Positions 9,348-60,870 of a DNA stretch of 64,000 nucleotides are shown one piece after another. The first letter of the stretch is position 1. Each line of letters begins with the position of its first letter. The notes beneath the pieces are model-generated. The model did no database searches. It was not told the DNA's origin and saw only the letters and a program-made list of their open reading frames with translations. The translations under genes were made by a program, and so were the position numbers. The DNA is from Chiloscyllium plagiosum (Eukaryota), in the NCBI RefSeq assembly GCF_004010195.1, contig NC_057718.1, positions 78,116,638 through 78,180,637 of the forward strand, written 5' to 3'.

Positions 9348-9478
9348 TCCCTGATGAAGGACTTGTATCCAAAACGTCAACTCCCCTGCTCCTCGTATGC
9401 TGTCTGACCTGCTGTGCCTTTCCAGCACCACACTTTTTGACTCTGATCTCCCAACATCTACAGTCCTCATTTTCTCCT
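9348..9478 (+). mobile_element. Penelope-like terminal cassette, family A, degenerate hammerhead core
   Basis: CTGATGAAGGACTTGTATCCAAAACGTC followed by the family-A tail GCTGTCTGACCTGCTGTGCCTTTCCAGC..CAGTCCTCATTTTCTCC. Confidence 0.75.
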
Positions 9479-10996
9479 GGGTCAAATCAGATGTTGAGTC
9501 TAGCAAAGAAATTGGTGCAACAGCTGATAATGTAGCAGATTTGTGGAACAAAATATCTTTCATTATGACAGAATACAAGAGCACTCAGATGCTTCCAAAA
9601 AACCTTAACCAAAAGGATCAATTTCCAGCAATTTAGCAGCAAAAAATAATACCCATTGTCAAATTGGCAACATGGGTAAAATGCCCATGAATTTCAATTT
9701 GCCCCACCATCTGAAATGTCAAATGAGAAGATTCCAAAATAATTCCAGTGAAGACTTCAGGGCATGAAAAGATAATATTGATGAGTTTGCATGGTCATCT
9801 GAACAAAATTAAATATATAGTAAGGTCAAAAGGTGCCTACAAAGAAATAAAATGCAAATTGTGGTTGTGTTGAGTGGTCTGCATTCTGTTAAATCTTGTG
9901 GATGTGTGTCTCAACAAGCCGTTCAAGGATCATGTTACTATCAAATGAAGTCCAAAATGGACCAAAATTTTCTCAATCACAGCATAAAGGTTGACATTGT
10001 GTATGAAAACAATTTTTTTCACTTCCAAAGTTACGCCTAAAAATTATACGTACTTTCATTTTTTCTGTCCTCTGGCCAAATGGTTAATGAAGAAAAATGC
10101 TAGCTGCCCCACTTGATGTTTGTGAGGTTTCATCGTCAAATCTTGGGGATGTGATTAATGCACAAAATAGGAACAGGAGCAGATCATTTAGTCCATTGAG
10201 CCCTGCCATTCAATGATGGAGGATGATCAAACACTTCAGTGCCTTTACCCTTTATGCCAGTAACCTAGTTGCCACTAGTAATCAGGAATCTAGAATCTCA
10301 GCCTTAAACATGCTCGAAGACTGAGCTTCCCCAGATCTTTGAAATTTTCTAACAAAGTTCATCGCCATCTTGGACCCAACTGGCACCTCCCTTATTTTTA
10401 ACTTGTGCCTTGGTTTTCAACTCCCAAACCAGGAGAAACATCTTTCCTGCATCTAGCCTGTGTATCCCCTTTAAGTTTTTAGTTAAAATCACCCCTCATT
10501 CTTTAAATATAGACCCAGTTTGCTCAATTTCTCTTCATATGACAATTGTAGGAACAATCTAGTGAACATTGATTGCACTCCTCTTCTATGACAGTGACGT
10601 GCAGGAGTGATATCTTTCCTGAGATAAGGAGGCCAAAGTCGCCACAGTGCTTCAGATATCTATCCAAGCTTCTGTACAAATGAAGCAAGACTTCACTCCT
10701 CCTGTACTCAAATTCCTTTGTAATAAACATTAGCATTCAATCAGCCTTCCTAATAGCTTGCTGCACCTAGATATTAGTCTTCAGTGACTCATCAGCAAGG
10801 ATACCTAGGTCCCTTTTGTACACTTACATTTTCCAATCCCTAGCTCTATATTATTGATATAAATTGCAAAGAGCTGGCCTAAGTGCTGATGCTTGCAATA
10901 GCTTGTTAGTCATAGCCTGCCAATGTGAGAATGACTTATTTATTCCTCTTCTGTTTTCTATCTGTTGCCAGTCAATCCAAGTCAGTACATTACCTC

Positions 10997-11121
10997 CTGA
11001 AGAAGGGCTTATGCCCGAAACGTCGATTCTCCTGCTTCTTGGATGCTGCCTGACCTGCTACACTTTTCCAGCAACACATTTTTCAGCTCTGATCTCCAGT
11101 ATCTGCTTCCTCACTTTCTCC
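10997..11121 (+). mobile_element. Penelope-like cassette, family A, intact minimal hammerhead core, 12-bp TSD
   Basis: CTGAAGA-A-GGGC-TTAT-GCCC-GAAA-CGTC at 10997-11024. Direct repeat ACATTACCTCCT at 10987-10998 and 11122-11133. Confidence 0.85.
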
Positions 11122-11353
11122 ACATTACCTCCTCTCCCAATGCTTCCGTTTTTCTAACCAGCTTCCTGTTAGGAACTTCCTCAAACTACTTGTGAAAACC
11201 GAAGTATACTACAATCATCAGCTCTCCTTTTTAAAAATTTTGATAGTAACAGCTTAAAGGCAAATTTCTCAAAACCTATTTCCTATTTGCAAATCCAGAT
11301 GTGTATTTATCACATCCTTTGCAATAGATTCTAGCATTTATAGACATTTTTTA

Positions 11354-11682
11354 GAATCATAGAATAGAATCATAGAATCCCTACAGTGCCGCACCGATCT
11401 TCTGAAGAGTAACCCACCCAGATGCATTCCTCTACCCTATTATCCTACATTTACCCCTGACTAATGCATCTAACCTCCACATCCCTGAACTCTATGGGAA
11501 TTTTTAGCGTGTCCAATTCACCTAACCTGCACATCTTTGGATTGTGGGAGGAAACCAGAGTACCTGGGGGAAACCCATGCACATGGCGGAGAATGTGCAA
11601 ACAGTCGCCAGAGGCTGGAATTGAACCTGGGTCCCTGGCACTGTGAGGCAGCAGTGCAAACCACTGAGCCACTGCTGCCCTC
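11354..11682 (-). mobile_element. tRNA-derived SINE (HE1/V-SINE-like)
   Basis: Minus strand reads GGGCAGCAGTGGCTCAGTGG (A box), GGTTCAATTCC (B box), the V-domain-like GGTTTCCTCCCACAATCCAAAGATGTGCAGG, and a (TCTATGAT)n tail. Confidence 0.9.
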
Positions 11683-11689
11683 ACCATTT

Positions 11690-12492
11690 TAAGATGTCAT
11701 CATCTATTTCCCCACATTCTGTATTTTCCATATCTTCTCCACAGTAAACACTGATTCAAAACGCTTGTGTAGTATCTCCCCCCATTTCTTGTGGTTCCAC
11801 ACATAGGCTGCTTTGTAGATATTTGAGGGGTCCTATTGTCACCCTGTTTGCCAAAGTTATCTCCTGTCCCCTTTTTGCCCTCTTGCTTTCCTCCTTAAGT
11901 GTACTCCTACTGCCTTATACTCTTCTAAGGATTCACTTGATCTCTGCTGTCTATACCTGACATATACATCCTTTTTCTTGACCAAAACCTCAATTTCTCG
12001 AGACATCCAGCAGTCCCTACACCCATCAGCCTTGCCTTTCACCTTAATAGGAACATACTGTCTCTGGACTCTTGTTACCTCATTTTTTTTTTAAGGCTTC
12101 CTATTTTCCAGCTGTGCCTTTACCTGTAAAGGCACAGCTGGAAAAGTGTTGGCAAATGGAACTAAATTAGTTTAGGGTATCTGGTCGCCATGGACAAATT
12201 GGACCAAAGGGTCGGTTTCAGTGCTGTACATTTCTATGACACAGTCCCTACACCCATCAGCCTTGCCTTTCACCCTAATAGGAACATACTGTCTCTGGAC
12301 TCTTGTTACCTCATTTTTTTTAAGGCTTCCTATTTTCCAGCTGTGCCTTTACCTGTAAACATCAACCCCCTGTCAACTTTTGAAAGTTTTTGCCAAGTGT
12401 TGGCAAATGGAACTAAATTAGTTTAGGGTATCTGGTCGCCATGGACAAATTGGACCAAAGGGTCGGTTTCAGTGCTGTACATTTCTATGACA
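11690..12492. mobile_element. CR1 fragments (minus-strand ORF2 piece plus plus-strand 3' tail) with a local duplication
   Basis: Peptide CWMSREIEVLVKKKDVYVRYRQ. The 3' tail TGGACCAAAGGGTCGGTTTCAGTGCTGTACATTTCTATGAC occurs twice. Confidence 0.75.
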
Positions 12493-12857: not shown

Positions 12858-13035
12858 AAGGCAATATACTGCCAATGTTGGAATTCTGAATCAAACACAG
12901 CATGCTAGAGCAACTCAGCAGGTCTGGCAGCATCTGTAGGGCAAGAGACAATTAACATTTTGACTCATTTGATTTCTTTGTCCACAATGCTGTCAGACCT
13001 GCTAAGTTTTTCCAACATTGTGTTAGTTTTCATCT
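12858..13035. mobile_element. Penelope-like fold-back cassette, family C, degenerate
   Basis: Inverted arms CAGCAGGTCTGGCAGCAT / ATGCTGTCAGACCTGCT. Flanking repeat TTTAGCTTA at 12849-12857 and 13036-13044. Confidence 0.6.
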
Positions 13036-13097
13036 TTTAGCTTATCTGCTATTTCTTTCTTCCACATTATAAATTGTCTTGACTCTTCCTGTAATGG

Positions 13098-13455
13098 GTT
13101 AAAAAGTGTGGCACTGGAAAAAAACACAGCAGGTCAGGCAGCATCCGAGGAACGGGAGTGTCATACGGGCATAAGCCTTTCAACAGGAATGGAGCTGAGA
13201 GATAAATGGAGGGTTAGGGCTGGGGGAGAAAGTAGGTGGGAAGTGATTGTGATAGGTTGATGGGAGGGTAGAGTGGATAGGTGGGCAGGAAGGTGAACAG
13301 GTAGGTCGTGTCAAGAGAGTGGCGCTGAGTTGGCAGATTGAATCTAGGATGATGTGGGGATTGAGATCCCCGGTGACCTATCCTACCTGTCCATCTATCT
13401 TCCCATCTATCCATTCCACCCTTCCCATTGACTTATCACAATCATCTCCAGTCCT
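13098..13455 (-). mobile_element. Penelope-like 3' fragment (family A) with an internal inversion and 14-bp TSD
   Basis: Family-A terminus at 13100-13190, then a purine-rich segment whose inverse lies at about 13375-13447. TSD TCTTCCTGTAATGG at 13084-13097 and 13456-13469. Confidence 0.8.
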
Positions 13456-18750: not shown

Positions 18751-19677
18751 AAGTTGTCTTGGCTTGCTTTTGCCTGTAAAGCTTTAAGTGTGCATTTGAT
18801 TCAAGACATATCGACTAACTGGATATATGGTATACAGTTTAATGTATTAGAATGCCATACTTCTCATGAAATCTAGACTTAGAAATTGTTTCAGATATTT
18901 TGTGATACAATGAACAAGTTATCATTCTTGATTAAAGAACTTTGATTTTGGTATCAAGAAATTTGTATTTGAAAAATCATTCTCTTCCTACTAAATTAAA
19001 ATTAGCAACCATTCAAAAAGGTACTGCTTCATAGAGTAATACAGCACGAAACCAGACCTTACGGTCCAACTCATCCATGTCAATCAGATATCATAAACCA
19101 ATCTAGTCCCATTTGCCAGTATTTGGCCCATATCCCTCTAAACCCATCCTATTCATGGACCCATTCAGATGCCTTTTAAACGTTGTAATTGTATCTGCTT
19201 CCTCTGGCAGCTCATTCTATACACACACCACCCTCTGCATAAAAAAGTTCCCCCTCTGCTCTGTTTTAAATCTTTTCCCTCTCTCCTTAAACCTATGCCC
19301 TCTAATTTTGGACTCCCCTACCCTGTGAAAAAGACTTTGGCTATGCACCCTATCCATGCTCCTCATGATTTTATGAACCGCTATAAGGTTACCCTTCAGC
19401 TTCCAAAACTCTACGGCAAAAACAAAAGCCCCAGCCCATCCAGTCACTCCCCATAGCTCAAACCTGCCAATCTTGGAAACTTCTTTTTCTGCACTCATTC
19501 AAGTTTCACAACATCTTTCCTGTAGCAGGAAGACCAGGATTGCATGCAGTCTACCAAAGGTGGTCTAATCAACTTCCTGTACAGCTGCAACATGACATTT
19601 CAACACTCCTATTCAATACACTGACCAGTGAAGGCAAGCAGACAAGATGCCTCCTTCACCATCCTGCCTACTTGTGA

Positions 19678-19888
19678 GGAGAAAGTGAGGTCTGCAGATG
19701 CTGGAGATCAGAGATGGAAATGTGTTGCTGGAAAAGCGCAGCAGGTCAGGCAGCATCTAGGGAACAGGAGAATCGACGTTTCGGGCATTAGCCCTTCTTC
19801 AGGAAGAAGGGCTAATGCCCGAAACGTCGATTCTCCTGTTCCCTAGATGCTGCCTGACCTGCGCTTTTCCAGCAACACATTTCCATCT
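19678..19888. mobile_element. Penelope-like fold-back cassette, family A, intact hammerhead core on the minus strand
   Basis: Inverted arms of about 90 bp centred near 19801. TSD CTGCCTAC(T/G)TGTGA at 19664-19677 and 19889-19902. Confidence 0.88.
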
Positions 19889-20929
19889 CTGCCTACGTGT
19901 GACTCCAGTTTCAAGGAATTATGAACCTGCACTCCAAGGTCTCTTTGGCACCCAGGGCCCCACCATTAACTATATAAGTCCTGCCCTGATTTGCCTTGCC
20001 AAAATGCAACACCTAATTTCACGAAATTAAACTCCATCTGTCATCCCTCCACCCATTGACCCATCTGTTCAAAGTCTTGTACTCTGAGATAACTACATTC
20101 ACTGTCCATTACACACTTATTTTGGTGTCATCTGATATTCACATCCAAATCATTTATATAAATGATGAAAAGCAGTGGACCCAGTACCGACCCTTGCAGT
20201 GCACCACTAATCATAGGCCTTCAGTTTGAAAATAGACCCTCTACCACCAGCCTCCATCTCCTATCTTCAAGCTAATTTTGTATCCAATTGACTAGCTCCA
20301 CCTGGATTGCATGTAATCTAATCTTGCTAAGCAATCTACCATATGGAACTTTGTTGAATGCCTTGCTGTAGTCAATACAGATGACATCTGCTGTTCTGCC
20401 TACAATCATCTTTGTCATTTCAAAAAATCTCAATCAAGCTAGTGAGACCCTATTACCTATGCCATGTTGACTCTTCATCAATCTTGGCCTTTCTAAACAT
20501 GTGCAAATACTATCCCTCAGAAGCTCCTCCAACTACTTACCATCACTGAAGTCAGGCTCACTGGTCTATAGTTCCTGGATTTTCCTTACCATCTTTCTTA
20601 AGTAGTGGCACCACATTAGCCATCCCCTAGTCTTCTAGCACCTCATCTGTGACTATCAATGGTACAAATATCTCAGCAAGGGGCCCAGCAATCTCTTTTC
20701 AGATTCCCTCAAAGCTCTGGGATACATTTGATCAGGTCCTGGGGATTTATCCACCTTCATGCATTTTAAGACGTCAAATACCACCTCTTCTGTAATACAC
20801 ACAATTTTCAATATATCACTGTTATTTCCCCAAGTTCTCTAGCTTCCATATCTTTTCCCACAGTAAATATTGACACTTGTAAAATGGTTGTTTAGTATCT
20901 CACCCATCTCCTGTGGTTCCACACATAAA

Positions 20930-21466: not shown

Positions 21467-23593
21467 ATGGTTCTGTTGATCTTTAAGGGGTCCTATTCTC
21501 TCCCTAGTTACTCTTTTTCTCAAGATATTTGTAGAATCTCTGAATTATCTTTAACCCTATTTGCCAAAGCTATACCATGTCTCATTTTTGCCTTTCTGAT
21601 TTCCCTCAAGTGTATTTCTACTGCCTTTATTCCTCTGGGATTCACTCAAGCCCAGCTGTCTATACCTGACACGTTCCTCCTTTTTCCTGACCAGAGTCTC
21701 AATTTCTCCAGTCATCCAGCATTCCCTACATCTACCAACCTTGCCTTTCGCAGTGACAGGATAATGTTGTATCCGAACTCTTATCTCATTTTTAAAGGCC
21801 TCCCACTTTCCATCTGTCCCTTTACCTGTGAATAATCTCTCCCAATCAACTTTTGAAAGTTCTTGCCTAACACTGTCAAAATTGGCCTTACTCCAATTTA
21901 GAACTTTAACTTTTACATCAAGTCTATCCTTTTCCATAATTATTTTAAGACCAATAGAATTATGATCACTAGCCTCAAAGTGCTTCCCCCACTGCCACCT
22001 CAGTCACTCGCTTGCCTTCTTTCTCCAAAGAAGGTTAAGTTTTGTTCTTTCTCTAATGGCTGCATTCACATTCTAAATAACAAAATTTTCTTATACACAC
22101 TTAAAGTCATCTCCATTCAAGCCGTTAACACCAAGGCAGGTCTGATGTATGTTTGGAAGGATAAAATCCCTTAACGTTACAAGGCTACTATTCTTAACAG
22201 GTATCTGAGATTGCTTTACATGTTTGCTGCTTAATTTCCTGCTGACCAATAAAGTGATCATCCTTTCCTATTTCTCAGTTCCACCCATAGAACTTAACGA
22301 CTTTCTCCCAGGAATATCCTCCCTAACTACAGCTATAATGTTATCCTTAACCAAAAACGCCCCCTTCCCTCCTTTTCTATCCTTTCTATAGCACCTGCAA
22401 CATCTGCCACTCCTGCCTTTCAATGAGCCATGTTTCTGTAGTAGCTATGATATCCCAGTCCCATGTTTCCAACCATATCCTAAGCTCATCTGCCTTACCT
22501 GTCAGGCCTCTTGCATTGTAATAAATGCAGTTTAATTAATCAGTCTCTGACTTGATCTTCTCTGACTTGATCTTCCCTGCCTTGGTGTGCTCCTCTTTAC
22601 TGCACCAGCCTCAGACTTATCTCCTTTCTTGCAATCTATTTGGGTCCTACTCACCCCCACTAGATTAAAGTAACACTAGCAAGTCTCCTTGCCAGGATAT
22701 TGATTTCCCCTCCAATTCTGTTGCAGCCTGTCCTCTCTCAGGAGTTTTCAATGATCCAAAAAATGTGAAACCCTGCCCTTTGCACCAGGGTCCCAGCCAT
22801 GCATTTGTCTGCCCTATCCTCCTATTTCTACTCTCTCTAGCACATAACACCGGGACTAATGCAGATATTACTAGCCTTGAGGACCTAGTTTTTAACCTGC
22901 CTAATTTCCTATATTCTCTTTGCAGAACTTCATCCCTTTCTCTTCCTATTTTGTTGGTATTAACGTGTACAACGACCTGCTTTTCACTCATCCCTTTGAG
23001 AATATTTTGCATCCTCTCCAAGACATCAGGGATGCAATAAATCATGCTGATGACTCACTGTCAGCCGCAGAAATGTCTATTTGTGACCCTGACTGAAGAC
23101 TCCCCTATCGCAATTGATTACTTGGAATCTGGCATGCCCCTCATTACAGTAGAGCCAGTCTCAGTACCAAAAACCTGGTTGTCAATGCTATATTCCCCAA
23201 GAGGCCATCATTCAAAACAGCATACTTGTTTGAGAAAGGGTTAGCCAAAAGAAACTCCTGCACTACCTACCAACCTCTCCTGCCTTTCCTGGTGCTAACC
23301 CATCTACCTGACTGTATCTATGGGTTTTACTACCTTCCTGAAACTGCCATGCAGCAAACTCCCGGTCCAATCAATTATTCATTGCAATTGGTTGGAGCAG
23401 CAGTTGGAGGCACGCAGTCACACTTTCTACAGACCTCAATCTTCAGGAACATTGAAGTTCTCCCAAATCCATCAGGAAGCACACATCACTCTACTAAAGC
23501 TATTCAGTACCTTAAACAATCTCCAGACCCAGAATATACCCCCAGAAGATCAGCTCTAGCTGAGTCTTACTGCTCAAAAATCCTGCTCTAGTA

Positions 23594-24079: not shown

Positions 24080-26295
24080 GGTCTTGATGAAATTAGACAG
24101 GAGCTTGTAGGGGTTGACTGGAATAGTTTGTTTGCAGGCAAAGGGACCTCCAGCAAGTGGGAGGCCTTTAATAGTTAGAGTTCAAGGTCTACATGTATCT
24201 GAGAGGGTGAATGGCAAGGTTGACAGGAGTAGGGAACCCTGAATGACAAGAGATATTGATGTTTTGGCCAGAAAAAAGAAGAAAGCATGGCTCAGGTACA
24301 GACAGCTGGGAGCAAAGGAATCCCTGGAGGTATATAGGGGATACAGGAGTTTACTGAAGAAGGAAATCAGGAAAGCGAAAAGGAGGCACGAGGTAGCCTT
24401 GGCTGACAAGATTAGGGTGAATCCAAAGAGAATATTAATGGAAAAAGATTAACTAGAGAGAGAATAGGACCCCTCAAGGACTAAAGTGGACATGTATACG
24501 TAGAACCACAGGAGACGGGTGAGATCATCAATGAATATTTCTCCTCTGTGTTTACCATGGAGAAAAACATGAAGATGTTGGAACTTGGGGAAGTTAGTGG
24601 TGATATCCTAGGGACAGTCCATATCACAGTAGAGGAGGTGTTGGATGTATTAAAATGAATGAATGTGGATAGATCTCATAGTCCTGACCAGATATATCCA
24701 AGAACACTGCAAGAGGCTAGAGAAGAAATTGCGGGAACCCTGGCTGATGTTTTTGCTGATATCATTAGTCATGGATGAGGTCCCGGAAGACTGGGGGGTA
24801 GCGAATGTTGTGCCCTTATTCAAGAAAAGCTGCAAATAAAAACCTAGGAACTATGAACCAGTAAGCTTAACATCTATGGTAGGTATGATTCTGAGATAAG
24901 ATATACATGCATTTGGAGATACAGGGTTTGATTAGGAATAGGAGAAAGTGAGGACTGCAGATGCTGGAGATCATTCCTGAAGAAGGGCTCATGCCCGAAA
25001 CGTCGATTCTCCTGCTCCTTGGATGCTGCCTGACCTGCTGCGCTTTTCCAGCAACACATTTTCAGCTTTGATTAGGAATAGTCAGCATGGCAGATCATGC
25101 CTCACAAATTTGTTAGAGTTCTTTGATGAAGTGTCCAGGATGGTTGACAAGGGCAGGACGGTAGATGGAACCTGTATGGATTTCAGTAAGGCATTTGATA
25201 AGGTTCCACATGACAGGCTGCTCTGGAAAGTTAGATTGCTTGGAATCCAAGGAGAGCTGGTAAATTGAATGCATAACTGGCTTGATGGTAGTAAGCAGAG
25301 GTTAATAGTGGAAAGATGCTTGTCGGACTAGAGGCCTATGACTGGGGGAATGCCTCAGGGGTCAGTGCTCGGCCCATTGCTGTTTGTTATCTATATCAAT
25401 AATTTGGATGAAAATGTACAAGGCATGATTCCTAAGTTTGCAGATGGCACTAAAATCAGAGGTATCATGGACAGTGAGGAAGGTTGTCAGAAATTGCAGC
25501 AGGGGAAGTGGGCCAAAATGGCAAATGGAGTTTAATATAGCTAAGTCTGAGATCTTGCATTTTGGAAAATCAAATCAAGGTATGAGTTTCATGGTCAATG
25601 GTAGGGCCTTAAGGAATGTAGTGGAATACAGGGACCTTGGAGTTCAAGTGCATGGTTCTCTGAAAATGGAGTCACAGGTAGACAGGGTAGTGAAGGTGGC
25701 TTTTGCACACTGGCTTTCATCAGTCAGCACACTGAGTATAGAAGTTGGGAAGTTATGTTGCAGTTTTACAGTGGTGAGGCCAGACTTGGAGTATTGTGTT
25801 CAGTTTTAGTCACCTTGCTATAGGAAGGATTTCTTACACTAGAAGAAATTTACAAGAATGTTGCCAGGACTCAATGGTCTGAGTTATAGGGAGAGGTTGG
25901 ACAAGCTGGGACTTTTTCTTTACAGTATAGGGACTTCTATGAGGACCTTATAGAAGTGTATAATATCATGCTCTCAGTCTTTTTCCCAGGGTTGGAGAAT
26001 CAAGGACTAGAGAGCATCAGTTGAATGTTAAGGGGGAAGAATAAAAGGGAACCCGATGGTGAATGTTTTTACACAGAGGGTGGTACACATATGGAATGAG
26101 CTGCCAGTGGAAGAGGTGGATGCGGGTACATTAACAAAATTTAAAAGGCGTTTGGACAAATACATGGATATGAAAAGTTTAGAAAGATATGGGCCAAGTG
26201 CAGGGAAATGGGGTTAGCGTTGATGGACATTTTGGTCGGCATGGACCAGTTTGGGCCAAAGGGCCTGTCTCTGTGCTATAGGACTCTATGACTCA
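24080..26295 (+). mobile_element. 5'-truncated CR1 LINE (RT domain to 3' end)
   Basis: Peptides GRSCLTNLLEFFDEV..MDFSKAFDKVPH and PQGSVLGPLLFVIYINNL..FADGTK. Tail ACTCTATGACTC. Confidence 0.92.
24942..25066. mobile_element. Penelope-like cassette, family A, intact hammerhead core, 15-bp TSD
   Basis: Core CTGAAGA-A-GGGCTCATGCCC-GAAA-CGTC at 24977-25004, preceded by an inverted piece of the terminus. TSD TTTGATTAGGAATAG at 24927-24941 and 25067-25081. Confidence 0.88.
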
Positions 26296-34671: not shown

Positions 34672-35196
34672 GGCCGAACACTTCAATTCCCCCTCCCTCT
34701 CTGCCAAGGACATGCAGGTCCTGGGCCTTCTCCATCACCACTCCCTTACCACCTGACGCCTGGAGGAAGAATGCCTCATCTTCCACCTTGGGACCCTCCA
34801 ACCCCACAGCATCAATGTGGATTTCACCAGTTTCCTCATCTCTCCTCTGCCCACCTTATACCAGTTCCAACATTCCAACTGGGTACTGCCCTCATGTCCT
34901 GTCCCACTTGTCAATCTTTCTTCCTGCCTACCGCTCCACCCTCCTCTTGATCTATCACTATTAGCCGCACCTCCGTCTACATATTTGCCTGCAAACTCTC
35001 AGCTCCCTTCCCTCCAGCCCCACCCTCTCCCATTTATCTGTATACCCCTTTGGTTCACAAGCCTCATTCCTGATGAAGGGCTCTTGCCCTAAACATGGAC
35101 TCTCCTGCTCCTGGGATGCTGCCTGACCTGCTGTGCCTTTCCAGCACCACACTCTCCACTCTGAAATCTCCAGCATCTGCAGTCCTCACTTTCTCT
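34672..35196 (+). mobile_element. Penelope-like element 3' fragment: GIY-YIG endonuclease C-terminal remnant plus family-A terminal repeat
   Basis: Translates to AEHFNSPSLSAKDMQVLGLLHHHSLTT*RLEEECLIFHLGTLQPHSINVDFTSF, then a pyrimidine-rich UTR, then CTGATGAAGGGCTCTTGCCCTAAAC at 35070. Confidence 0.8.
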
Positions 35197-35960
35197 TAGC
35201 ACAGCAAGAGCCAACCTATTGTATTGTCCCCTTCCTGCAAATCCCAGCACACCAATTTACTTTTAAACTCTGAAAAGCTGGGTTTTGACTGATGAAATAT
35301 CTAACTTCCCGTATCATATCAGATCCGGTGACAAGTCAGAAAACTGAAGATTGCTAGAATAGAACCTCAGCGAGGGTGAGTCAGCAACATTTTGAGATAA
35401 GCTCCTGACAATTTTCTTGGTATTAACCCTGTAAGTGTATCTGAACGTTAATCAGCGTCATGTCCCATCAGATAAACGGACCCGCAGGTATAGGTTGCTT
35501 TCATTTGCACTGAGCAGAGAAGCGCAGAGCTGTCCACATTGAAAATGTGCTGCTGGACTTTCCAGAGGGAATTCTACAGAAAGGTCAGATAATTGAAGCT
35601 CTAATTTTCCACACGGAGCTGCCAAAATTGCTGAGAATCCTGCATTCTTTGTCTTTATATATATATGTATATATACCAGAGACACTGTAATTGAATGATG
35701 TACAAGTGTGAACAGTGCAAGTACCTGCGTTGAGCTGACTGTGAATGTGAAATCGGTTGCACTGTTTATTTAACAAGGTCAAATTCACGGAAATCTCGTT
35801 GACCTGCACCGCAGACAATATTTTAAAAACCCTCAAGACTGTGAAGACTCGACTTGGAAACTTCCAAAAAGTGACTTGTAACTTTCTCCTCGCAATAAAA
35901 TCTACGAATGTTTAATAAGAAGTATTAGCATCGAGTGATACAAACGTTTCGACGGTTACA

Positions 35961-46270: not shown

Positions 46271-46582
46271 GTATCAACAATCAATATAATTGTTGCTTCC
46301 ATAACCTCTCCATGATTGTCTTTATACTATTTAAATCTGCACGATGGGTGTATTTCATTGGCTTCCACAACCCATCCAAATGGAGGAGCTACCCACACCT
46401 ACCAGATGTGAGTATGATACTTTGATATCGCTGGGTATTCTTCATTTGGATTTTTTAAGTGATCAAAGGAGTATTTCAACATTGAATCCTATTTCTGATT
46501 CAGAGTGAAAACGAAAACCACTAAAACCAATGTTTCATCCCAGGTGATGTACAGTTATTGTAGTGGGATGTAATAAAAGGCT

Positions 46583-46788
46583 GAAAATGTGTTGCTGGAA
46601 AAGCGCAGCAGGTCAGGCAGCATCCAAGGAACAGGAGAATCGACGTTTCGGGCATAAGCCCTTCTTCAGGGCTTATGCCCGAAACGTCGATTCTCCTGTT
46701 CCTTGGATGCTGCCTGACCTGCTGCGCTTTTCCAGCAACACATTTTCAGCTCTCATCTCCACCATCTGCAGTCCTCACTTTCTCCTGG
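46583..46788. mobile_element. Penelope-like fold-back cassette, family A, intact core on the minus strand
   Basis: Near-perfect inverted arms of about 82 bp centred near 46665. TSD AATAAAAGGCT at 46572-46582 and 46789-46799. Confidence 0.9.
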
Positions 46789-47234
46789 AATAAAAGGCTA
46801 ATGGAACAAAACAGCTGGAAATGTGATGATGATAAATGAAATTTCATGTGGGGTACTTAGGAGGATATAAACTGAGAAAAAGAGAAAGCAGCCAAACCAT
46901 TTCTGATGCAACTAACTAAATTAAACTTGCATCATTTGACTATCCAATGTAGCAAAAACCCAATTGTGTTTCAGAGCCTCTCAAATAAACAGCTGAGTAA
47001 GCCCCATTTGTAGAACTTCTGTTTTCCCATACAAAATGCACCATTTCTCCTGATATCCTAAAGAGATTATGTGCAGCTGGCAGGCCCAAGGTCTAGATCC
47101 ACTCCGGTATGCAGAGGTAGTGCTGAGACTAAACCAGCTAAAATTGCACAATTTACCAGCATATATCATTGACACGTCTTCAATTACTTATCCACATGGA
47201 AGACCATTTGAACCATAAGGAATTGACTTATGGA

Positions 47235-48095: not shown

Positions 48096-48831
48096 ATCAT
48101 CTGGAACAAAGTGGGAAAAATTCCAGCTCCCAGCGAGGGACTCACCTCTTTTGATTGGGTGTCATACCATCAGCAGTAGCCTGGGGTCATGCATTCTGTA
48201 CAGGTCAGCTGTGACATTATTGTATCCATTACAGCAGGTTCAATGAATTGCAATGAGCCAGATACCAAGGAGTCCTTAGTTCCTTTTTAAGAGGGAGGCT
48301 CATGTGTTACTTATCAGATGGGTACAGGTTTGAGTATGGCATGGGTAAGCACCAAGAAAATCTGAGGGTGTCATAACAGCTGAAAATGCATGCTTATAAC
48401 ATTAAAACATGGTTTCACTTGTTGGAAGCACAGAGTGTGCTTTAGTTACTTGACACTTTCTAGACCTACTGCTCTGGATGTAATAGCTGTTCTAATTTCC
48501 AATCTCCTGGCAATGTCCTTCAGCTGCAATCTTCTAACAATTATCATACTAATATGGAAGGGCCTACACAGAGTAGCCTGCATTGTCCCAGTGTCCGAAC
48601 CCTATGTGCATACTCCAGAGCCACACCAATGTGGTTGACTCTCCACAGCCCTCTGAAATAGTCTAGCAAGTCAGTTGTAACAATTGCTACAAAGTCTCAA
48701 CAAAGACATTAAACCATTTGGAACATCGGGCATTGACCGAGGCACCAGAAACAACAACAGCAAAAACAGCCCTGTCAATCCTGCAAAGTCCCCTTACTAA
48801 CATCCTGGAGATAAATGCCAAAATTGGGAGA

Positions 48832-49043
48832 CAGTGAGGTCTGCAGATGCTGGAGATCAGAGTTGAGAGTGTGTTGCTGGAAAAGCACAGCAGGTCAGGC
48901 AGCATCTGAGGAGCAGGAAAATCGCGTTTCAGGCCAGAGCCCTTCATCATACTCCTGATGAAGGGCTCTGGCCTGAAACATCAATTTTCCTGTTCCTAGG
49001 TTGCTGCCTGACCTACTGTGCTTTTCCAGCAACACATTCTCAA
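48832..49043. mobile_element. Penelope-like fold-back cassette, family A
   Basis: Inverted arms around 48950. Core CTGATGA-A-GGGCTCTGGCCT-GAAA-CATC at 48955-48982. TSD CCAAAA(T/C)TGGGAGA at 48818-48831 and 49044-49057. Confidence 0.88.
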
Positions 49044-49767
49044 CCAAAACTGGGAGAGCTGTCTCACAGACGAGTGAAGCAAATGCCTGACATAGTGATA
49101 CTCACAAATCACACCTTACAATGTCCCAGACACCACCATCACCATCTCGAGCTATGTCCTCTCCCAGTAGACACAGACGCCGCAGAGGTGGTGATATACT
49201 TGGGAGTACTTGACATCGACTCTGCACCTCATGAAGTTTCATGGCATCAGGTTAAATACAGGAAAAGAATTGTCTTGCTGATTACTATGGACTCTCCTCC
49301 CTCCTGTGATGAATCAAAGTTCTCCATTATGAACAATACTTTGAGGAAGCACTGAGGGTGGCAACGGCCCAAAAAATACTCTGGGTGGGGGATTTCAGTG
49401 TCCACCAGCAAGAGTGCTCAGCATTAATACTACTGTTCACACTGGTCAGATTCTAAAGGACATAGCTGCTAAACTGGGTCTGTGGTGGGTTGTGAGGAAA
49501 CCAACAAGAGGGAAAAATGTATTTAACCCCATTCTTTCCATTCTGCCAGCTACAGATGTATCTGTCAGTGAGAATATCAGTAAGAGTGACTACAAAACAG
49601 TCCTTGTGGAGGCAAGGTCCTGCCTTCAGATTGAGAAAGTCCTCCACCATGTTTTGTGAGACTATAATCATGCTAAATGGAACAGACTGCTAACCGGCCT
49701 CACAACTCAAGACTGAGCCATCACTGTAGGCCATCATAATCTGCAGTCTCATAGTCCGCATATTTAC

Positions 49768-50095: not shown

Positions 50096-50975
50096 CATCC
50101 CACGTTCAAGCATTACCATCCAGCCTGGGGATCAACCCTAGTTCAATTGAGAGTGTAAGGAGGGCATGCTAGGAGCAGCACCAGGAATATCTCAACTGAG
50201 GTGTCAACTTGAAGTTACTAAACAGGGCCACTTGCACGCCAAAAAGCATAAGTAGTAAGTGTTGAGCTGAGTGATCCCACAGCCAACAGATCAGATCTGA
50301 GCTCTGTTATGCTGCCACATCTAGTTGTGAATGGTGGTGGATAATTGAATAACTCACTGGAGGAGGCTTCACAAATATCCCCACCTTCAATGAAAGAAGA
50401 GTCCAGTATATCAGTGCAAAAGATAAAGCTGAAGCATTTACACCGATCTTCAGCTAGTAATGCCATGTGGATCATCCATCCCAGCCTGCTCCAGTGGTAC
50501 CCAGTATCACAGATGCCAATCTTCAGTCAATTTGATTCACTTCACGTGATATCACGAAAAAGTTGGAGGCATAGGATACTGCAAAGGCTATGGGCCCGGA
50601 TAAGATACACAATAGTACAAAGATATGCTCCGAACTTGGCGCTCTCTGAGCCAAGCTGTTCCAGTACAGTTGCAATACTGGCATCTACACAGTAATGTGG
50701 AAAATTGCTCAGGTATGTCCTGTACACATAAAGGACAAATCCAACCTGGTGAGTTACCGCTTTTGTCAGCCACCCATAATCATGTCTCACAAACTTGATT
50801 GAGTTTTTTGAAGAAGTAACAAAGAAGATTGATGAGGGCAGAGCAGTAGATGTGATCTATATGGACTTCAGTAAGGCGTTCAACAAGGTTCCCCATGGGA
50901 GACTGATTAGCAAGGTTAGATCTCATGGAATACAGGGAGAACTAGCAATTTGGATACAGAACTGGCTCAAAGGTA

Positions 50976-51731
50976 NNNNNNNNNNNNNNNNNNNNNNNNN
51001 NNNNNNNNNNNNNNNNNNNNNNNNNNNNNNNNNNNNNNNNNNNNNNNNNNNNNNNNNNNNNNNNNNNNNNNNNNNNNNNNNNNNNNNNNNNNNNNNNNNN
51101 NNNNNNNNNNNNNNNNNNNNNNNNNNNNNNNNNNNNNNNNNNNNNNNNNNNNNNNNNNNNNNNNNNNNNNNNNNNNNNNNNNNNNNNNNNNNNNNNNNNN
51201 NNNNNNNNNNNNNNNNNNNNNNNNNNNNNNNNNNNNNNNNNNNNNNNNNNNNNNNNNNNNNNNNNNNNNNNNNNNNNNNNNNNNNNNNNNNNNNNNNNNN
51301 NNNNNNNNNNNNNNNNNNNNNNNNNNNNNNNNNNNNNNNNNNNNNNNNNNNNNNNNNNNNNNNNNNNNNNNNNNNNNNNNNNNNNNNNNNNNNNNNNNNN
51401 NNNNNNNNNNNNNNNNNNNNNNNNNNNNNNNNNNNNNNNNNNNNNNNNNNNNNNNNNNNNNNNNNNNNNNNNNNNNNNNNNNNNNNNNNNNNNNNNNNNN
51501 NNNNNNNNNNNNNNNNNNNNNNNNNNNNNNNNNNNNNNNNNNNNNNNNNNNNNNNNNNNNNNNNNNNNNNNNNNNNNNNNNNNNNNNNNNNNNNNNNNNN
51601 NNNNNNNNNNNNNNNNNNNNNNNNNNNNNNNNNNNNNNNNNNNNNNNNNNNNNNNNNNNNNNNNNNNNNNNNNNNNNNNNNNNNNNNNNNNNNNNNNNNN
51701 NNNNNNNNNNNNNNNNNNNNNNNNNNNNNNN
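50976..51731. other. Assembly gap (N run)
   Basis: Run of n. Confidence 1.
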
Positions 51732-52228
51732 TTTCATGCAGAGGGTGGTACGTGTATGGAATGAGCTGCCAGAGGATGTGGTGGAGGCTGGTACAATTGC
51801 AACATTTAAAAGGCATTTGGATGGGTGAGAGGGGAAAGATATAAAAGAGACCTAAGGGACAACTTTTTCATGCAGAGGGTGGTACGTGTATGGAATGAGC
51901 TGCCAGAGGATGTGGTGGAGGCTGGTACAATTGCAACATTTAAAAGGCATTTGGATGGGTGAGAGGGGAAAGATATAAAAGAGACCTAAGGGACAACTTT
52001 TTCATGCAGAGGGTGGTACGTGTATGGAATGAGCTGCCAGAGGATGTGGTGGAGGCTGGTACAATTGCAACATTTAAAAGGCATTTGGATGGGTGAGAGG
52101 GGAAAGATATAAAAGAGACCTAAGGGACAACTTTTTCATGCAGAGGGTGGTACGTGTATGGAATGAGCTGCCAGAGGATGTGGTGGAGGCTGGTACAATT
52201 GCAACATTTAAAAGGCATTTGGATGGGT
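51732..52228 (+). repeat. Perfect 134-bp tandem repeat (about 3.7 copies) of a CR1 segment
   Basis: Units start at 51827, 51961 and 52095; copies appear identical. Confidence 0.95.
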
Positions 52229-53356
52229 ATATGAATAGGAAGGGTTTGCAGGGATATGGGCCGGGTGCTGGCAGGTGGGACTAGATTGGGTTGGGATTTC
52301 TGATCGGCATGGACGGGTTGGACCGAAGGGTCTGTTTCCATGCTGTACATCTCTATGACTCTATACTCACCACCACAAAACAGAATCACAGAGACAGATA
52401 CCAACACATGATATGCCATATGTAACAAATGAGTCAAGAGATAAAAGCCACATTTGGTGACAGTGAAGATTGGGTATACATGGAATGCATTCAGTTATTT
52501 TTTGCGAACATTTTTAATATCAAAATGGTAACATTTTGGCCCTGGGCTTGAGCTAGATTAATACTATGCTTCAGATTGATCAGATGAGTCTTGGACTCAT
52601 TTTCATGTTTGAGGCGAGCTGCTGGCATTTGTTGCCTCCAATGGTAGCTTGCCTTATACTGGGAATTAAATTAGATGGATGGGAATTAGGGGATAGGTCT
52701 TTGAGGTATTGGAGGCAGAGGGGGATGCAAGTCAGGAGGGGAGCTGGTCGGTGTTAAATTAGGGTGGGGTTCTGATTAGGGTACAGGCCCAATTTTACCT
52801 CCAGACAGGAATTATAGCGTGTTCTAATACCTCTAACCTTTCCTGGTTAACTTTTAAGTTAAGTGACTTGAAACACTCCAAAATCTCCAGTTCATCTCAG
52901 AGTTTCAAAGGGTTTCAGATGGATAACTTGGTAATGGCCCAATTGGAAATTTCAACTTGCCAGGCAATTCCCATAGAAGGAACAGTGTCAGCATCTCCAC
53001 ATGGTCCTGATGCACATCTCCATTCTATGTTGCCCAATAATTACTTTCCTACTAGAAGATTGAGGGCAAAGAGTAGCAAGGCATGAGGAAGTATTTCTGT
53101 TAAATGCTCTGCACTGCAGTCTGGTCATCTGTTCAATCTACAGAGGCCAATGATCGGTACATTTACTTTCCGTTTTCTATGATTGTCTTACATTGATTAC
53201 AGAACTTTAAAATCTGATACTCAGGGGTTGCATTTTCTCTTCAGGTAATAGTTCTGAAAAAGTTAATGTTAATGACTGTATTGAGCTTCAATAATATCAT
53301 ACTGGCTCTGTGGGAATAAAATATCTTAGGATCTCACTGAATGCAGACCTACTCAT

Positions 53357-55020
53357 TGTCACAAAGCTGGTACGTTTTCTCAAAGTTACTGTGTCCTTGA
53401 TTTTTTTCAGAGGGTTCATAAAACAGCCCAGGCACTGAAACAGCTGAGTTGGTGCAGAGATGAATGGTTTATTGGGGCCCTTTTTGTTTACCCCTAAACA
53501 ATTGATACCTCAGGCCAAAGGCTTTCATGTTTTAGAAGTAACTTGTATAATGAAAGGGGAATGGCCAATCCTGGCAGCTGAGGTTTTATGGTTCAGTTGT
53601 ATTGGGACTGTAGCACGTATTTTCGCAACAGCATCATTAAGTCAGGTTTGGATAGGATAAATTATCGGGTATTCTATTTTCTGTTCTTTCTGTTACATTA
53701 TGTAATTTTGTAAATAAATTTTGTTTGTTTAAAACTTGGCAGTCGACCCAGCTAATTTACATCAGGAATATCCACGATACACCTAGCTAAACAAATAGCA
53801 AAGTTACAGTCTGGGCTACCTGCTTAAAAATGTTTTGATGGGTCCAGTCTAGTCCATAATAGACTGGGAGCTCTTTGCAGGATCTAAACAGCAAATGGGA
53901 GATGTTAGTGTCTTTTGTTTTGGGTGTCGAATAGCAATGGTTCTTTCAGTCAGCAAAGAGTTTCTGGGGGTGGAAGAAGTGACCCTGGGGGTTTTACAAA
54001 AGGCAAATAAGACCAAGCTGTGGGAATTAATACACAAGCTGGGGTTGAATTTACCTCCTAATGCGAGGAAAGATGCAATGATTTTAGCTGTTGCTCAATA
54101 TTTAAATTTGCTGGAAACACCATCAGGATCTATAGTGATGGCAAGAATTGCATTTCAAATGAAGCAGCCTGAGTTGGGGATGAGAGATAGGGAAGCGGTA
54201 GCTGAAATGAAACAGTTTGAGTTATGATTAAAATCAGAAGAAAATGTACACAGGGCTTTAGCAGAAAGGAAAGAAAAAGAGAGAGAGAGTTTGAACCTCA
54301 GAAATTGACACTTAAAAAGGGAAGTCAGCATAAAAGGATGGAGATGAAGGCTGAAGGTAGGCTTAATGAGGAAGAGAGTGAGGATGAGCAAGCCCCTGCT
54401 AGGCAAACGCCTGGTGAGAAACTGTTTAAGTATGTTCAGGCATTGCCTAAATTTGAAGAGAAGGATGTGGAAACCTTTTTCATCTCATTTGAAAAAGTGG
54501 CTAAACAAATGGAGTGGCCAGTGACCATGTGGGTTTTGTTGATCCAAACCAAACTTGTAGGTAGAGCTAGTGAGGTCACTATCAGAGGAGGTATTTGGGT
54601 AATATGAGAAGGTGAGAAAAAGCCATGTTAAGTGCTAATGAGCTTGTACCAGAAGCCAATAGACAATGTTTCAGGAATCTAAGGAGGGACCCTGGTCAAA
54701 CCTATATTGAGTTTGAAAGGATCAAACAAAGTAATTTTGATAGATGGATAAGAGCCTTAAAAGTAAAGCAAATTTATGATGCTCTTAAAGAGACAATTAT
54801 TTTGGAGGAGTTCAAAAATTGACTGCCTGACATATTGCGAACTCATGTGGAAGAGCAGAGAGTTAAAATGGCGAGGTTAGTAGCTGAAGTGGCTGATGAC
54901 TATGAGTTGATCCATAAACCGTGAGTTGACTTCCTAAATCAATTCCAATCCATGAGGGATAGAGGCTGGGGAAAAGAGAAATCCTTACACGGAAGGGGAA
55001 AGGTAGATCCCAGTGTTGAT
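53357..55020 (+). mobile_element. Partial Gmr1-like LTR element: 5' LTR (53357-53861), PBS, gag remnant
   Basis: LTR similar to the reverse complement of 45706-46270. PBS TGGGAGCTCTTTGCAGGAT at 53865. Peptides MVLSVSKEFLGVEEVTLGVLQK, LPKFEEKDVETFFISFEKVAKQMEWP and ALKETIILEEFKN. Confidence 0.88.
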
Positions 55021-55021
55021 C

Positions 55022-56536
55022 ATAACCATTCCATCAGTTTACTTTCGATTATCAATGAAGTGATGGAAGGCATTATCAACAGTGCTATCAAGCACCACAT
55101 GCTCAGAACCAAACTAAGCAGATTATTGCTATCAGGGTCACTCTGCTCCTGACCTCATTACAGCCTTGGTTCAAACATGGACAAAAAAACTAAATTTTAG
55201 AGGTGAAGTGAGAGTAAACTGATGGAATCTTCACATCAAGGCCACATTTAACCAAGTAGTCTCAAGGAGCCTGAGCAAAACCAGAATCAATGGAAATCGG
55301 GTGGGGGCTCTACTAGTTGGACTCAATCCTGGAAATTGGTCTTGGTTGTTGAAAGTCAGTCATCTCAGCTCCAGGGCATGTTTGCAGGAGTTCCTCTTTG
55401 TTCTAGGCCCAGCCATCTTCATCTGCTCTCTCAATGATCCCTCCATCATAAGGTCAGAAGTGGTAATGTTCGCTGATGATTGCACAATGTTCAGCATTGT
55501 CCGTGATTCCTGAGATACCGAAGCAGTCCATGTTCAAATGATATATAATCTGGACAATACCTAGGCTTGGGCTGACAAGTGGCAAGTAACATTCATGCTA
55601 TACAAATACCAGGCTATGACCATCACCAACAAGAGACATTCTAACCACAACCCCTTAACATTCAGCAATGTTACCATCACTGAATCCCCACCACCAACAT
55701 CTTGGGGCTTACCATTGACCAGAAACTCACTGGACTCCTCATATAAACACAGTGGCTACAAGAGCAGATCACAAGCTAGGAATACTGTGGCAAGTAACTC
55801 ACCTCCTGACTCCCCAAAGCCTACTTAGCATCTATAAGGCGCAAGTCAAGAGTGTGATAGAATATTAGGAAAACGTGAGGACTGCAGATGCTGAAGATCA
55901 AAGTGGAGGTTGTGGTGCTGGAAAAGCACAGCAGGTCAGGCAGCATCCGAGGAGCAGGAGAATCGACGCTTATGCCCAAAATGTCGCTTCTCCTGCTCCT
56001 CAGATGCTGCCTGATCTGTTGTGCTTTTCCAGCGCCACAGTCTCGACTGTAATGGAATACTCCCGATTTGCCTGGATAAGTGCAGCTTTAACAACATTCA
56101 AGCTTGACACTATCCAGGACAAAGCAGCTCACCTGATTGGCACCATATCCACAAACATCCACTTCCACCACCACCAAAACACAGTAGCAGCAGTGTGTAC
56201 TATCTACAAGATGCGCTACAGATATTCACCAAAGATCCTTAGACAGCATCTTCCAAACACATAAACACTTCTATCTAGAAGGACGAGGGCTGCATAACAC
56301 CATCACCTGCAAATTCCCTGTAAACCACTCACCATCCTGACTTGGAAATATATTGCTGTTCCTTCACTGTCACTGGGTCAAAATCATGGAATTCCCTCCA
56401 TAAGGACATTGTGAGCCAACCAACAGGGACTGGAATGGTTTAAGAAGGCAAATCACCATCAACTTCTCCAGGTAAATGGGATGGGTCATAACTGCTGGCC
56501 AGTCAGCGATGCCCATGTCCTACAAGTGAATAAAAG
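55022..56536 (+). mobile_element. RT and 3' end of the second LINE family (CR1/L2 group)
   Basis: Peptides SISLLSIINEVMEGIINSAIKHH and VLGPAIFICSLND..MFADDCTMFS. Ends GTGAATAAAAG. Confidence 0.82.
55866..56047. mobile_element. Penelope-like fold-back cassette, family A, centre deleted
   Basis: Inverted arms around 55970. Imperfect TSD TGTGATAGAATA / TGTAATGGAATA. Confidence 0.8.
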
Positions 56537-56634
56537 AAGCTAGTCTTTATTCACCAATAACTATTTCATCCAGGTTTTCATGTAAGAGGCTTGAGCTGAT
56601 TTTCCAACCAATCAGTCAGTTAAAATCAGGCAAG

Positions 56635-56961
56635 TTAGATTAGATTAGATTTGATTTCCTACAGTGTGGAAACAGGCCCTTCGGCCCAATTAGTCCACAC
56701 CCACCCTCCGAAGAGCAACCCACCCAGACCCATTCCCCTACATTTACCCCTTCACCTAACACTATGGGCAAGTTAGCATGGCCAATTCACCTAACCTGCA
56801 CATCTTTGGACTGTGGGAGGAAACCGGAGCACCTGGAGGAAACCCACACAGACACATGGAGAATGTGCAAACTCCACACAGACAGTTGCCCGAGGCAGGA
56901 ATTAAACGCGGGTCTCTGGTGCTGTGAGGCAGCGGTGCTAACCACTGTGCCACCGTGCCAC
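56635..56961 (-). mobile_element. tRNA-derived SINE (HE1/V-SINE-like)
   Basis: Reverse complement of the 29276 SINE, with a (GATTA)n tail. Confidence 0.92.
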
Positions 56962-57534
56962 CCCTTATCAAACTGACATCACACTGGCCCAGCACTACAA
57001 TCTTCACCATTTTTTTCAAGTGAGCCAAGGTTCCCGCCTCAGGAAGACACAGACTTTGTTAAAGTATGAACACCAATGCAATTGGGTTTCTAATTAAAAT
57101 AGCAATTAAACTGTCTCTGTGTCTTCTTCTGCAGGCACATCCTGCCATCATTCTTTAGCAGGTGGAGAAATGTTAGAGGAGGATGATATAATCAATTGTG
57201 TCAAAGGTTTCAGACAAATCAGGAGGGATTAAGCTTCATATGGTCTCACCAAAATCTTCTCCTCTTCGTCAAACTCTCATCAAAGATGCACCCTAATGGT
57301 TCTAGTGTAACCGTTACCCAGTAACAAGATTCAGCTTGCTTTTTTGAAGAAACTGGAGGAGGGGGAAGAATCACGTTGTCCTCATGGAGGAAGAGGAGAA
57401 CAGGCAGGATGAAGACATTGATTGAATCGATACTACTGTTGCCAGCACCAGCTTAGAGGACAAGTGCACCTGATGTCACATAAGTTAGAGACTATGGTTG
57501 CATAATTATATAGTCAGTTGCATAGTTAATAAGG

Positions 57535-57875
57535 TGAGCAGGATGGCACAGTGGCTCACTGCAGCCTCACAGTGCCAGGGACCCAGGTTTGATTTCAGCC
57601 TTGGTGACTATCCATGTGAGTTTACACATTCTGCACATGTTTGCTTGGGCTTCCACCAGGTGCTCCAGTTTCCTCCCACAATCCAAAGATGTACAGGTTA
57701 GGTTTGGCCACAATGAATTGCCTCGTTGTGTCCAGGGATGGGCAGGCTAGGTGGATTAACAATGGTAATTGAGGAGCTATGGCAATAGAGTTGGGGGATG
57801 GCTCTGGAATGGATGCTTTTTGGAGGGTCAGTGAGCCAAATGGCCTCTTTCTGGAGTGTAGGGATTATCTGATTC
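57535..57875 (+). mobile_element. Older degenerate V-SINE-like copy
   Basis: TGGCACAGTGG..GCCTCACAGTGCCAGGGACCCAGGTTTGATT..TTTCCTCCCACAATCCAAAGATGTACAGGTTAGG. Confidence 0.8.
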
Positions 57876-58226
57876 CAACAACAGAGTTGCATACGAAAAT
57901 TTGCCATGTGCTGTGAATTTCATTTGACACTAACTGAAATTAGAAAAACATAGGGTGGAAGGAAGACCGTCTCCATTGGCATCTCACAAGCTGTTAAATG
58001 AGTGATCCGATTTTTTTTAGTCAACAGCACTGATGTTGTTACAAATTGTACAGGATTGTTGTCTTCAGCACAAAGTACTGTCTTGTGTGGATGTGATAGT
58101 GGCAAACTCTTTTGAAAAGAGTCAGTAAAACAAGTCTGTAAAAGCAGAAGTGGTTTGATGGAATCTGGAATAGATTTATGTTATGTGTCCTCTGTTGTCT
58201 CAGTTGCAAGATTGTTCCTGCGTTTA

Positions 58227-58588
58227 GGTAAAAACAATGACTGCAGAGGCTGGAAACCAGATTCTGGATCAATGGTGCTGGAAGAGCACAGCAGTTCAGG
58301 CAGCATCGAGGAGCTTCAGCAAAATCGACATTTCGGGCAAAAGCCCTTCATCAGGAATAAAGGCAGAGAGCCTGAAGCGTGGAGAGATAAGCTAGGGGAG
58401 GGTGGGGTGGGGAGAAAGTAGCATAGAGTACAATGGGTGAGTGGGGGAGGAGAAGAGCTTCAGGGCGGAGGAAATGACCTGGGAGTTGCAGTGGGAGAGG
58501 GACTCCCTGAGATTCTTGTAGACATAGGAGGAAAACTTCTTCAAGTCAGGCATCCTTGCAAGAGGATTCGCACTCTCCACGCTTCAGG
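58227..58588 (-). mobile_element. Penelope-like 3' fragment, family-A variant, with hammerhead core and a short 5' inversion
   Basis: Minus strand reads CTGATGA-A-GGGCTTTTGCCC-GAAA-TGTC (58354-58327). 58573-58588 is the inverse of 58371-58386. Confidence 0.8.
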
Positions 58589-60852: not shown

Positions 60853-60870
60853 ATATTTTGGATTGTGGAC

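Follow-up and report, generated by a model that had tools for sequence, protein, structure and literature searches.

Hammerhead-bearing units of Chiloscyllium plagiosum as probable 5′-truncated ends of a Penelope-like retrotransposon

Units in the window and in the genome

The window analyzed here, a stretch of 64,000 nucleotides (nt) from Chiloscyllium plagiosum (contig NC_057718.1, positions 78,116,638 to 78,180,637), contains dispersed units with a minimal hammerhead ribozyme motif (Table 1). An initial annotation, made from the letters of the sequence, had listed at least ten related units and regarded them as a dispersed family of ribozyme cassettes. BLAST of one copy against the window confirmed all ten named loci as real, and by means of three natural reference copies, 15 arms can be distinguished, which form 10 insertion clusters; five of the loci are head-to-head inverted insertions. 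A stand-alone status of the cassettes is not supported, as the units are linked to an element encoding a reverse transcriptase (RT) and a GIY-YIG endonuclease: each of them is the 3′ end, that is, the end of the pseudo-long terminal repeat (pseudo-LTR), of an endonuclease-containing (EN+) Penelope-like retrotransposon, mostly reduced to a decaying stump.

Positions within the unit are counted from C3 = 0, with the predicted cut at +27/28. The exact motif, CUGA(A)GA-A-GGGC-loop-GCCC-GAAA-CGUC, is complete in four of the 15 window arms; in two further arms the boxes are preserved and the ACGU palindrome is gone, and the remaining ones are decayed or interrupted within the motif. Tandem Repeats Finder, run on the window, detected no array of the unit.

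Besides the window, the sequence examined comprised a 1.14 Mb genome sample (1,140,705 non-N bases in evenly spread tiles, four of which flank the window) and 62 targeted loci. The sample yielded 179 arms in 139 clusters, which together with the window gives 194 arms in 149 clusters. A minimal-hammerhead descriptor matched 75 times in the sample and seven times in the window, compared with 0–1 matches in each of five Markov-shuffled controls, and the exact 29-letter motif occurs 81,303 times (40,615 + 40,688) in the 3.56-Gb genome, the reversed pattern having 0 matches. Thus, the occurrences of the motif are not due to chance. Extrapolated to the genome, these figures correspond to about 230,000 descriptor matches and roughly 430,000 insertion records. 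The density in the window, previously called striking, is in line with the sample: 10 clusters were observed vs. 7.6 expected (P = 0.23), and 15 arms vs. 9.7 (P = 0.07).

Table 1. Copies of the unit and remnants of the parent element in the window. UTR, untranslated region; ORF, open reading frame; a point denotes insertions with arms on both strands.
Position	Strand	Feature	Motif and arms	Target duplication
9346..9476	+	Single long-tail arm, decayed	Stem II broken, G12 changed to A	
10995..11121	+	Single long-tail arm, intact motif	C3 at 10997, loop TTAT, predicted cut after 11024; 5′ truncation at -2, 2-bp stem I	12 bp
13105..13191	-	Short arm, decayed	C/T-rich UTR remnant extends upstream towards about 13444	
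19677..19891	.	Head-to-head inverted insertion: long arm -, short arm +	Long arm with intact motif, C3 at 19802, loop TAAT; arms identical across 89 aligned nt	14 bp
24939..25072	.	Inverted insertion: tail-only arm - (24939-24981), short arm +	Short arm with intact motif, C3 at 24977, loop TCAT, 4-position stem I, predicted cut after 25004	17 bp, one mismatch
34673..34850	+	C-terminal remnant of the GIY-YIG endonuclease domain of the element (from translation)	One in-frame stop	
34851..35197	+	C/T-rich 3′ UTR, then long-tail unit	C3 at 35070; G12 and palindrome broken	
46580..46790	.	Inverted insertion: short arm -, long arm +	Short arm with intact motif, C3 at 46669, loop TTAT; arms identical across 83 aligned nt	14 bp
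48827..49044	.	Inverted insertion: long arm -, short arm +	Short arm with C3 at 48955, palindrome lost	14 bp
55866..56048	.	Inverted insertion, join within the motif	Both arms without the first catalytic box	
58226..58426	-	Long-tail unit of the TTTT-loop subfamily, plus UTR remnant	C3 at 58354, palindrome lost	
58452..58572	-	Piece of the ORF start of the element		

The parent element and its hammerhead motif

In the genomic copies L006, L010, L017, and L026, the order is RT motifs, a CX4CXXC linker, the GIY-YIG domain, the UTR, and the unit. The C/T-rich UTR between the GIY-YIG domain and the unit spans ~250 nt, and RT motifs are visible in the translations of copies L006, L015, L017, and L025. 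Within the window, the endonuclease remnant lies directly upstream of the UTR and the unit and shares 24 of 33 residues with the endonuclease end of copy L026 (E = 1e-12); the adjoining UTR and unit represent a pseudo-LTR end still in its original element context. In partial tandems (at least copies L032, L033, L036, L045, L048, L050), the unit reads straight into the ORF start. Standing both after the end of the ORF and before its start, the unit represents the end of the pseudo-LTR in an EN+ Penelope-like element. Atlas matches were found at 0.96, with HTH_animal in 89–98% and GIY-YIG in 13–18% of the members, and a PDB sequence search with the endonuclease part gave nothing significant.

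The CX4CXXC linker between the RT and the endonuclease is seen in the translations of copies L026 and L006, and a CX2-5CxxC linker at this place defines the Neptune and Nematis clades (PMC8557442). By its linker, rather than by placement in an RT phylogeny, the element would be of the Neptune/Nematis type. Of these two clades, we presume Neptune on the basis of host range.

Two observations concern the frames of the element. In this C-rich element, long open frames overlap beside the endonuclease frame (L010 992-1360, L015, L017, L022, L025), likely as an effect of composition. In the CUGAUGA subfamily (L050, L032, pseudo-LTR/ORF junction), the AUG of the motif opens a frame of ~18 codons that is not in the frame of the main ORF; in the same two copies, the main ORF frame stays open across the entire unit.

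The unit has the CUGANGA, GAAA, and UH boxes, an extra base before the G10.1–C11.1 pair, and the palindromic positions 15.2/16.2. The extra base is A in 78 of the 82 descriptor matches from the sample and the window, and the palindrome is CG or GC in 59, most of the others being explained by CpG decay. The assignment to Penelope-type minimal type I hammerheads proposed in the initial annotation agrees with the published motif (Cervera & De la Pena 2014, PMC4209133) and with covariation across families, and its suggestion that ACGU can pair as stem III only between two motifs fits the same published motif. The proposed stem I of about 2 bp requires correction, as the stem I of the element is a four-position helix: among 83 intact copies retaining four upstream bases, 62 have three pairs plus U.U and 14 have at least four pairs. 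It is perfect in one subfamily of nearly identical copies, with one U.U in most other subfamilies; the copy at 10997 shows 2 bp because it is 5′-truncated.

The stems covary between the four families into which the 82 matches fall (the two smallest resting on three and two matches): stem I, stem II, and the palindrome remain paired although their letters differ. In family A, to which the units of Table 1 belong, 16 of 81 columns vary between lineages, and just one of the 16, a decayed CpG, falls within the 23 columns of the core and the stems (P = 0.023). The cross-lineage pattern provides good structural support for selection acting on the source elements. An Rfam scan up to E = 5 gave 18 matches, none of them to a hammerhead family, and the matches of the inverted pairs were sub-threshold microRNA hairpins; the lack of a hammerhead match is expected because stem III is loop-less.

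Other hammerhead-bearing families were also noted. Copies of a second one, whose stem II has 5 bp and whose palindrome is AGCU, occur in the window at 30517-30640 (-) and 32182-32410, the latter being a head-to-head pair of one short and one long arm with an apparent target duplication; the AGCU palindrome is present in 19 descriptor matches from the sample and the window. A third related family is represented at 12903-13018 by an inverted pair that has decayed and whose motif is mostly lost at the junction.

Individual copies decay largely neutrally. The motif is covered by 113 of the 194 arms and is intact in 36 of them, and hence the claim that the stem and the catalytic boxes are kept stands between lineages and fails among individual copies. 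At the CpG common to C11.1 and G12, C11.1>T was observed in 24 of 110 arms and G12>A in 20 of 112 (P = 0.50), and C17 is changed in 19 of 113. The refuting outcome named in the initial annotation, no excess of core conservation over the flanks among copies, addresses the wrong level, since dead copies decay regardless of whether the source ribozyme functions; the conservation signal lies between lineages.

The two folded inverted pairs of the window (19677, 46580) are predicted to fold into long hairpins (-184 and -182 kcal/mol) in which the intact motif is buried. For copy 24969-25016, the hammerhead dimer is predicted at -10.5 kcal/mol vs. -16.4 for two monomers and -24.1 for the best dimer, by a nearest-neighbor energy model that leaves out core contacts. 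Published minimal motifs cleave at low levels even as dimers (PMC4209133), and the ribozyme of an Anolis element is active only with protein (PMC11167929). In the single-cell poly-A run X20 of related organism B, 2601 reads of the unit come from both strands, with a depth profile resembling DNA contigs and without any accumulation of read starts or ends, and run X21 has 0 reads on the unit; libraries of this type cannot reveal a cap site or a ribozyme cut.

Insertion ends and the likely mechanism of insertion

The 3′ ends of the arms fall mainly into two peaks (168 of 188 usable ends), at about +75..99 (short arms) and +120..134 (long arms), which correspond to the two RT start sites and the tail described in the literature. 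Most clusters are single arms (107 of 149), followed by 38 head-to-head pairs, two direct same-strand pairs, and two more complex cases. Among the 35 scorable pairs (three of the 38, at tile edges or N, were left out), 28 combine a long and a short arm, two are short+short, one is long+long, and four join a long arm with another type; 28 long+short pairs out of 31 differ from independent choice with P = 1.3e-6. Target duplications, with the mode at 14 bp, were found at 28 of 37 pairs vs. 1.2 in controls. The two arms of one pair are 92.1% identical (n = 29), compared with 88.3% across pairs (n = 524).

Half of the 5′ ends (90 of 183) lie at -12..+9, while five of 183 lie at +24..+32 around the cut; thus, the copy ends carry no trace of cutting after GUC. 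In the 117 exact-motif copies, selection by the motif excludes ends inside it; three were dropped for N, and in the remaining 114 the 5′ ends lie at 0..-8 in 66 copies and at -9..-29 in six, whereas 42 run at least 30 nt upstream. The mode is -4 (15 copies), the first base of stem I, within a pyrimidine-A-pyrimidine run. Such a run resembles the initiator consensus. In Drosophila Penelope, an internal TATA-less promoter lies inside the pseudo-LTR (PMC2377424).

Two other sources of the 5′ peak were considered and rejected. An artefact of the reference is at odds with the upstream flanks of short single copies, which are mutually unrelated (one match among 39), and with the persistence of the peak under subfamily-matched upstream profiles. 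A splice acceptor, for which AG-ended pyrimidine runs at about -17 and -26 would be candidates, accounts for few ends, as just four of 114 lie at -18..-25.

Taking the ends and the pairs together, the units are probably 5′-truncated ends of an abundant EN+ Penelope-like element, likely copied from uncut RNA by two cDNAs at a staggered cut. The endonuclease would nick both strands ~14 nt apart, and from each 3′-OH, cDNA synthesis would begin at one of two positions inside a shared RNA. As a rule, the cDNAs would run off the 5′ end of this RNA, which we place at the first bases of stem I, and the two cDNAs would then be joined head to head. The templates were likely uncut because the 5′ ends pile up at the first stem I bases and not at the cut site. 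Reverse transcription starting at the 5′ junction would run off after 90–130 nt and leave stumps, and starts at a downstream junction would produce long copies. Many single copies may derive from pairs of which one arm has almost disappeared. Selection on the ribozyme would be confined to source elements, where a second motif and probably the help of a protein would be needed, and the window copies would be mostly inert by-products. The end pattern and the pairs fit the scheme described for the Anolis element, where both strands are cleaved and then extended, reverse transcription starts at two neighboring sites, and the template is mainly uncut RNA (PMC11167929).

A side observation on the ends is that short single copies (L085–L090; tiles T129, T144, T91, T154) often carry a few filler bases copied from the target duplication, or fragments of the other arm. 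The arms of the 38 pairs exhibit no skew indicative of one-strand A-to-G editing (AG 29, GA 30, TC 35, CT 42).

A bolder version, which we put forward tentatively, takes the hundreds of thousands of stumps as a direct record of uncut RNA that starts exactly at the first base of stem I and is copied twice, from the two fixed start sites, by a dimeric RT/endonuclease working on both strands of a 14-nt staggered cut, with the hammerhead acting as an off-switch or timer. If so, the element RNA would lose its capped end, the first ~32 nt, through cleavage in a dimer, and only uncut RNA would be inserted.

Several points weigh against copying of an EN+ Penelope-like element from uncut RNA. The domain matches are just below the curated cut-offs, both for RVT_1 in copy L017 (Pfam, E = 7.9e-6, 26.2 bits vs. 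29.6) and for GIY-YIG in copy L010 (E = 2.1e-4, 22.0 bits vs. 22.6), copy L026 by itself has no Pfam or PDB match, and the 20 fetched loci, many with N gaps, contain no full-length uninterrupted ORF. A target duplication was found in only 13 of 39 short single copies, some of these being doubtful 8-mers. The greater identity within pairs could also come from gene conversion, the arm ends are approximate by a few nt and can be shifted by junction microhomology, and the RNA 5′ end, possibly located at stem I, is placed there from DNA only. Non-CpG core changes number 44 vs. 60 expected from base-matched flanks (P = 0.019), a slight deficit that could reflect weak selection or, inseparably from it, ascertainment from picking arms whose alignment reaches the core.

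The most serious competitor keeps the same element and explains the 5′ pile-up by annealing of cDNA ends or RT stalling instead of an RNA start, the self-complementary hammerhead being the last place for this before the C/T-only UTR. Junctions within pairs are frequently located at palindromic stretches of the motif, ends at -12..+9 are found in 56 of 87 arms of multi-arm clusters vs. 34 of 96 single arms, and several single copies bear fragments of the opposite arm. However, the mode at -4..-1 lies upstream of the strongest palindromes (stem II and ACGU), stops nearly cease past -8, and the partial tandems that read into the ORF also start near -5 (L032, L033, L045). On balance, we regard annealing or stalling as possible, though doubtful.

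An independent non-autonomous element driven by the ribozyme, either retrozyme-like or resembling a short interspersed nuclear element and replicating via self-cleaved or circular RNA, would account for the very high copy number, the young subfamilies with intact motifs, and the target duplications, and a pseudo-LTR origin has been reported for animal retrozymes (bioRxiv 10.64898/2026.07.22.740005). Such an element is nevertheless unlikely, given that the unit forms no tandem arrays and plain direct pairs make up two of 149 clusters, that the ends avoid the cut site (5/183), that 42 of 114 intact copies extend into the UTR of the element, and that subfamily marks are common to short units and ORF-linked copies.

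Even less likely is that the host retains some genomic copies as functional ribozymes, acting via trans-dimers on transcripts of introns or intergenic regions. In its favor, about a third of the arms are intact (36/113), core changes are in slight deficit, and the unit is seen in RNA reads of the related organism on both strands, but catalytic G12 and C17 decay at CpG rates, the dimer of 24969-25016 is predicted to be less stable than two monomers or the best dimer, and published minimal motifs cleave poorly even when dimeric (PMC4209133).

Neighboring features, significance, and known systems

Other features of the window include an intact single-exon ORF of a rhodopsin-type G protein-coupled receptor at 35919-36977 (+) (7tm_1, E = 1e-48), which starts ~0.7 kb downstream of the unit at 35070 on the same strand and which we take to resemble the platelet-activating-factor receptor. 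A proline-rich coding-like exon at 3068-3613 (+), without a significant Pfam match, presumably resembles the C-terminal part of afadin. Broken RT and gag-like fragments of LTR retrotransposons, in our assumption gypsy-like, lie at 41543-44327 (-) and 53853-54607 (+). Fragments of long interspersed nuclear elements, several of them adjoining N gaps, are located at 435-1001, 21557-22003, 25429-25809, 29676-30263, and 50780-52369, with an additional RT fragment at 60658-62418; we presume that many of them are CR1-like and that one RT fragment is L1/Tx1-like. A 134-bp tandem at 51732-52228 is 100% identical and adjoins a gap, possibly being an assembly artefact.

As a ribozyme find, the family is ordinary: the motif, the extra base, the dimer logic, and the pseudo-LTR location have already been published. 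Its value lies in scale and regularity, the end statistics being a modest, testable addition; PMC8557442 and PMC11167929 leave open what the hammerhead does in Penelope elements. Read as a record of insertion, the ends predict an RNA start at stem I, an uncut template, and a long arm combined with a short one. When transcribed, the inverted pairs would yield many long double-stranded RNA hairpins. Among the papers listed by our literature searches, none deals with this family, and one shark genome preprint has no “Penelope” passage; Repbase or Dfam may already list the family. The searchable supplement text of PMC4209133, figures excluded, contains neither “shark” nor “Callorhinchus.”

The unit shares with the minimal hammerheads of metazoan Penelope-like elements (PMC4209133) the boxes, the extra base between positions 9 and 10.1, the G10.1–C11.1 pair, the palindromic 15.2/16.2, the absence of loop III, the short stem I, the pseudo-LTR location, and the prevalence of single or opposite-strand copies of truncated elements; it differs in its short (4 bp) stem II. 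The exact count of 81,303 compares with maxima of ~9,000 in Xenopus tropicalis and ~4,000 in coelacanth in that paper, with different descriptors and genome sizes. Animal non-LTR retrozymes (bioRxiv 10.64898/2026.07.22.740005) likewise have a type I hammerhead, a pseudo-LTR origin, and no coding capacity; they consist of tandem units with a hammerhead in each, whereas the units here are single or inverted, and membership in this group was rejected on the absence of arrays and the rarity of direct pairs.

Heavy 5′ truncation, partial tandems, an inverted 5′ copy, a one-ended tail (30–40 bp in the published cases), target duplication, and the Cys linker are all known from insertion units of EN+ Penelope-like elements (PMC8557442, PMC3846280). 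Unlike those units, most insertions here have shrunk to 130–220 bp, and the target duplications are ~14 bp vs. 8–10 bp in the Adineta examples. The Anolis Poseidon element PAc (Frangieh et al. 2024) belongs to the Penelope/Poseidon clade, and the sections consulted on it mention neither a regular pairing of a long with a short arm nor a 5′ stop fixed at stem I (PMC11167929). At the same time, PAc parallels the insertion scheme proposed here, with two adjacent internal RT start sites ~100–130 nt past the hammerhead, extension of both strands, an uncut RNA template, and no RNA ends at the cut site (PMC11167929).

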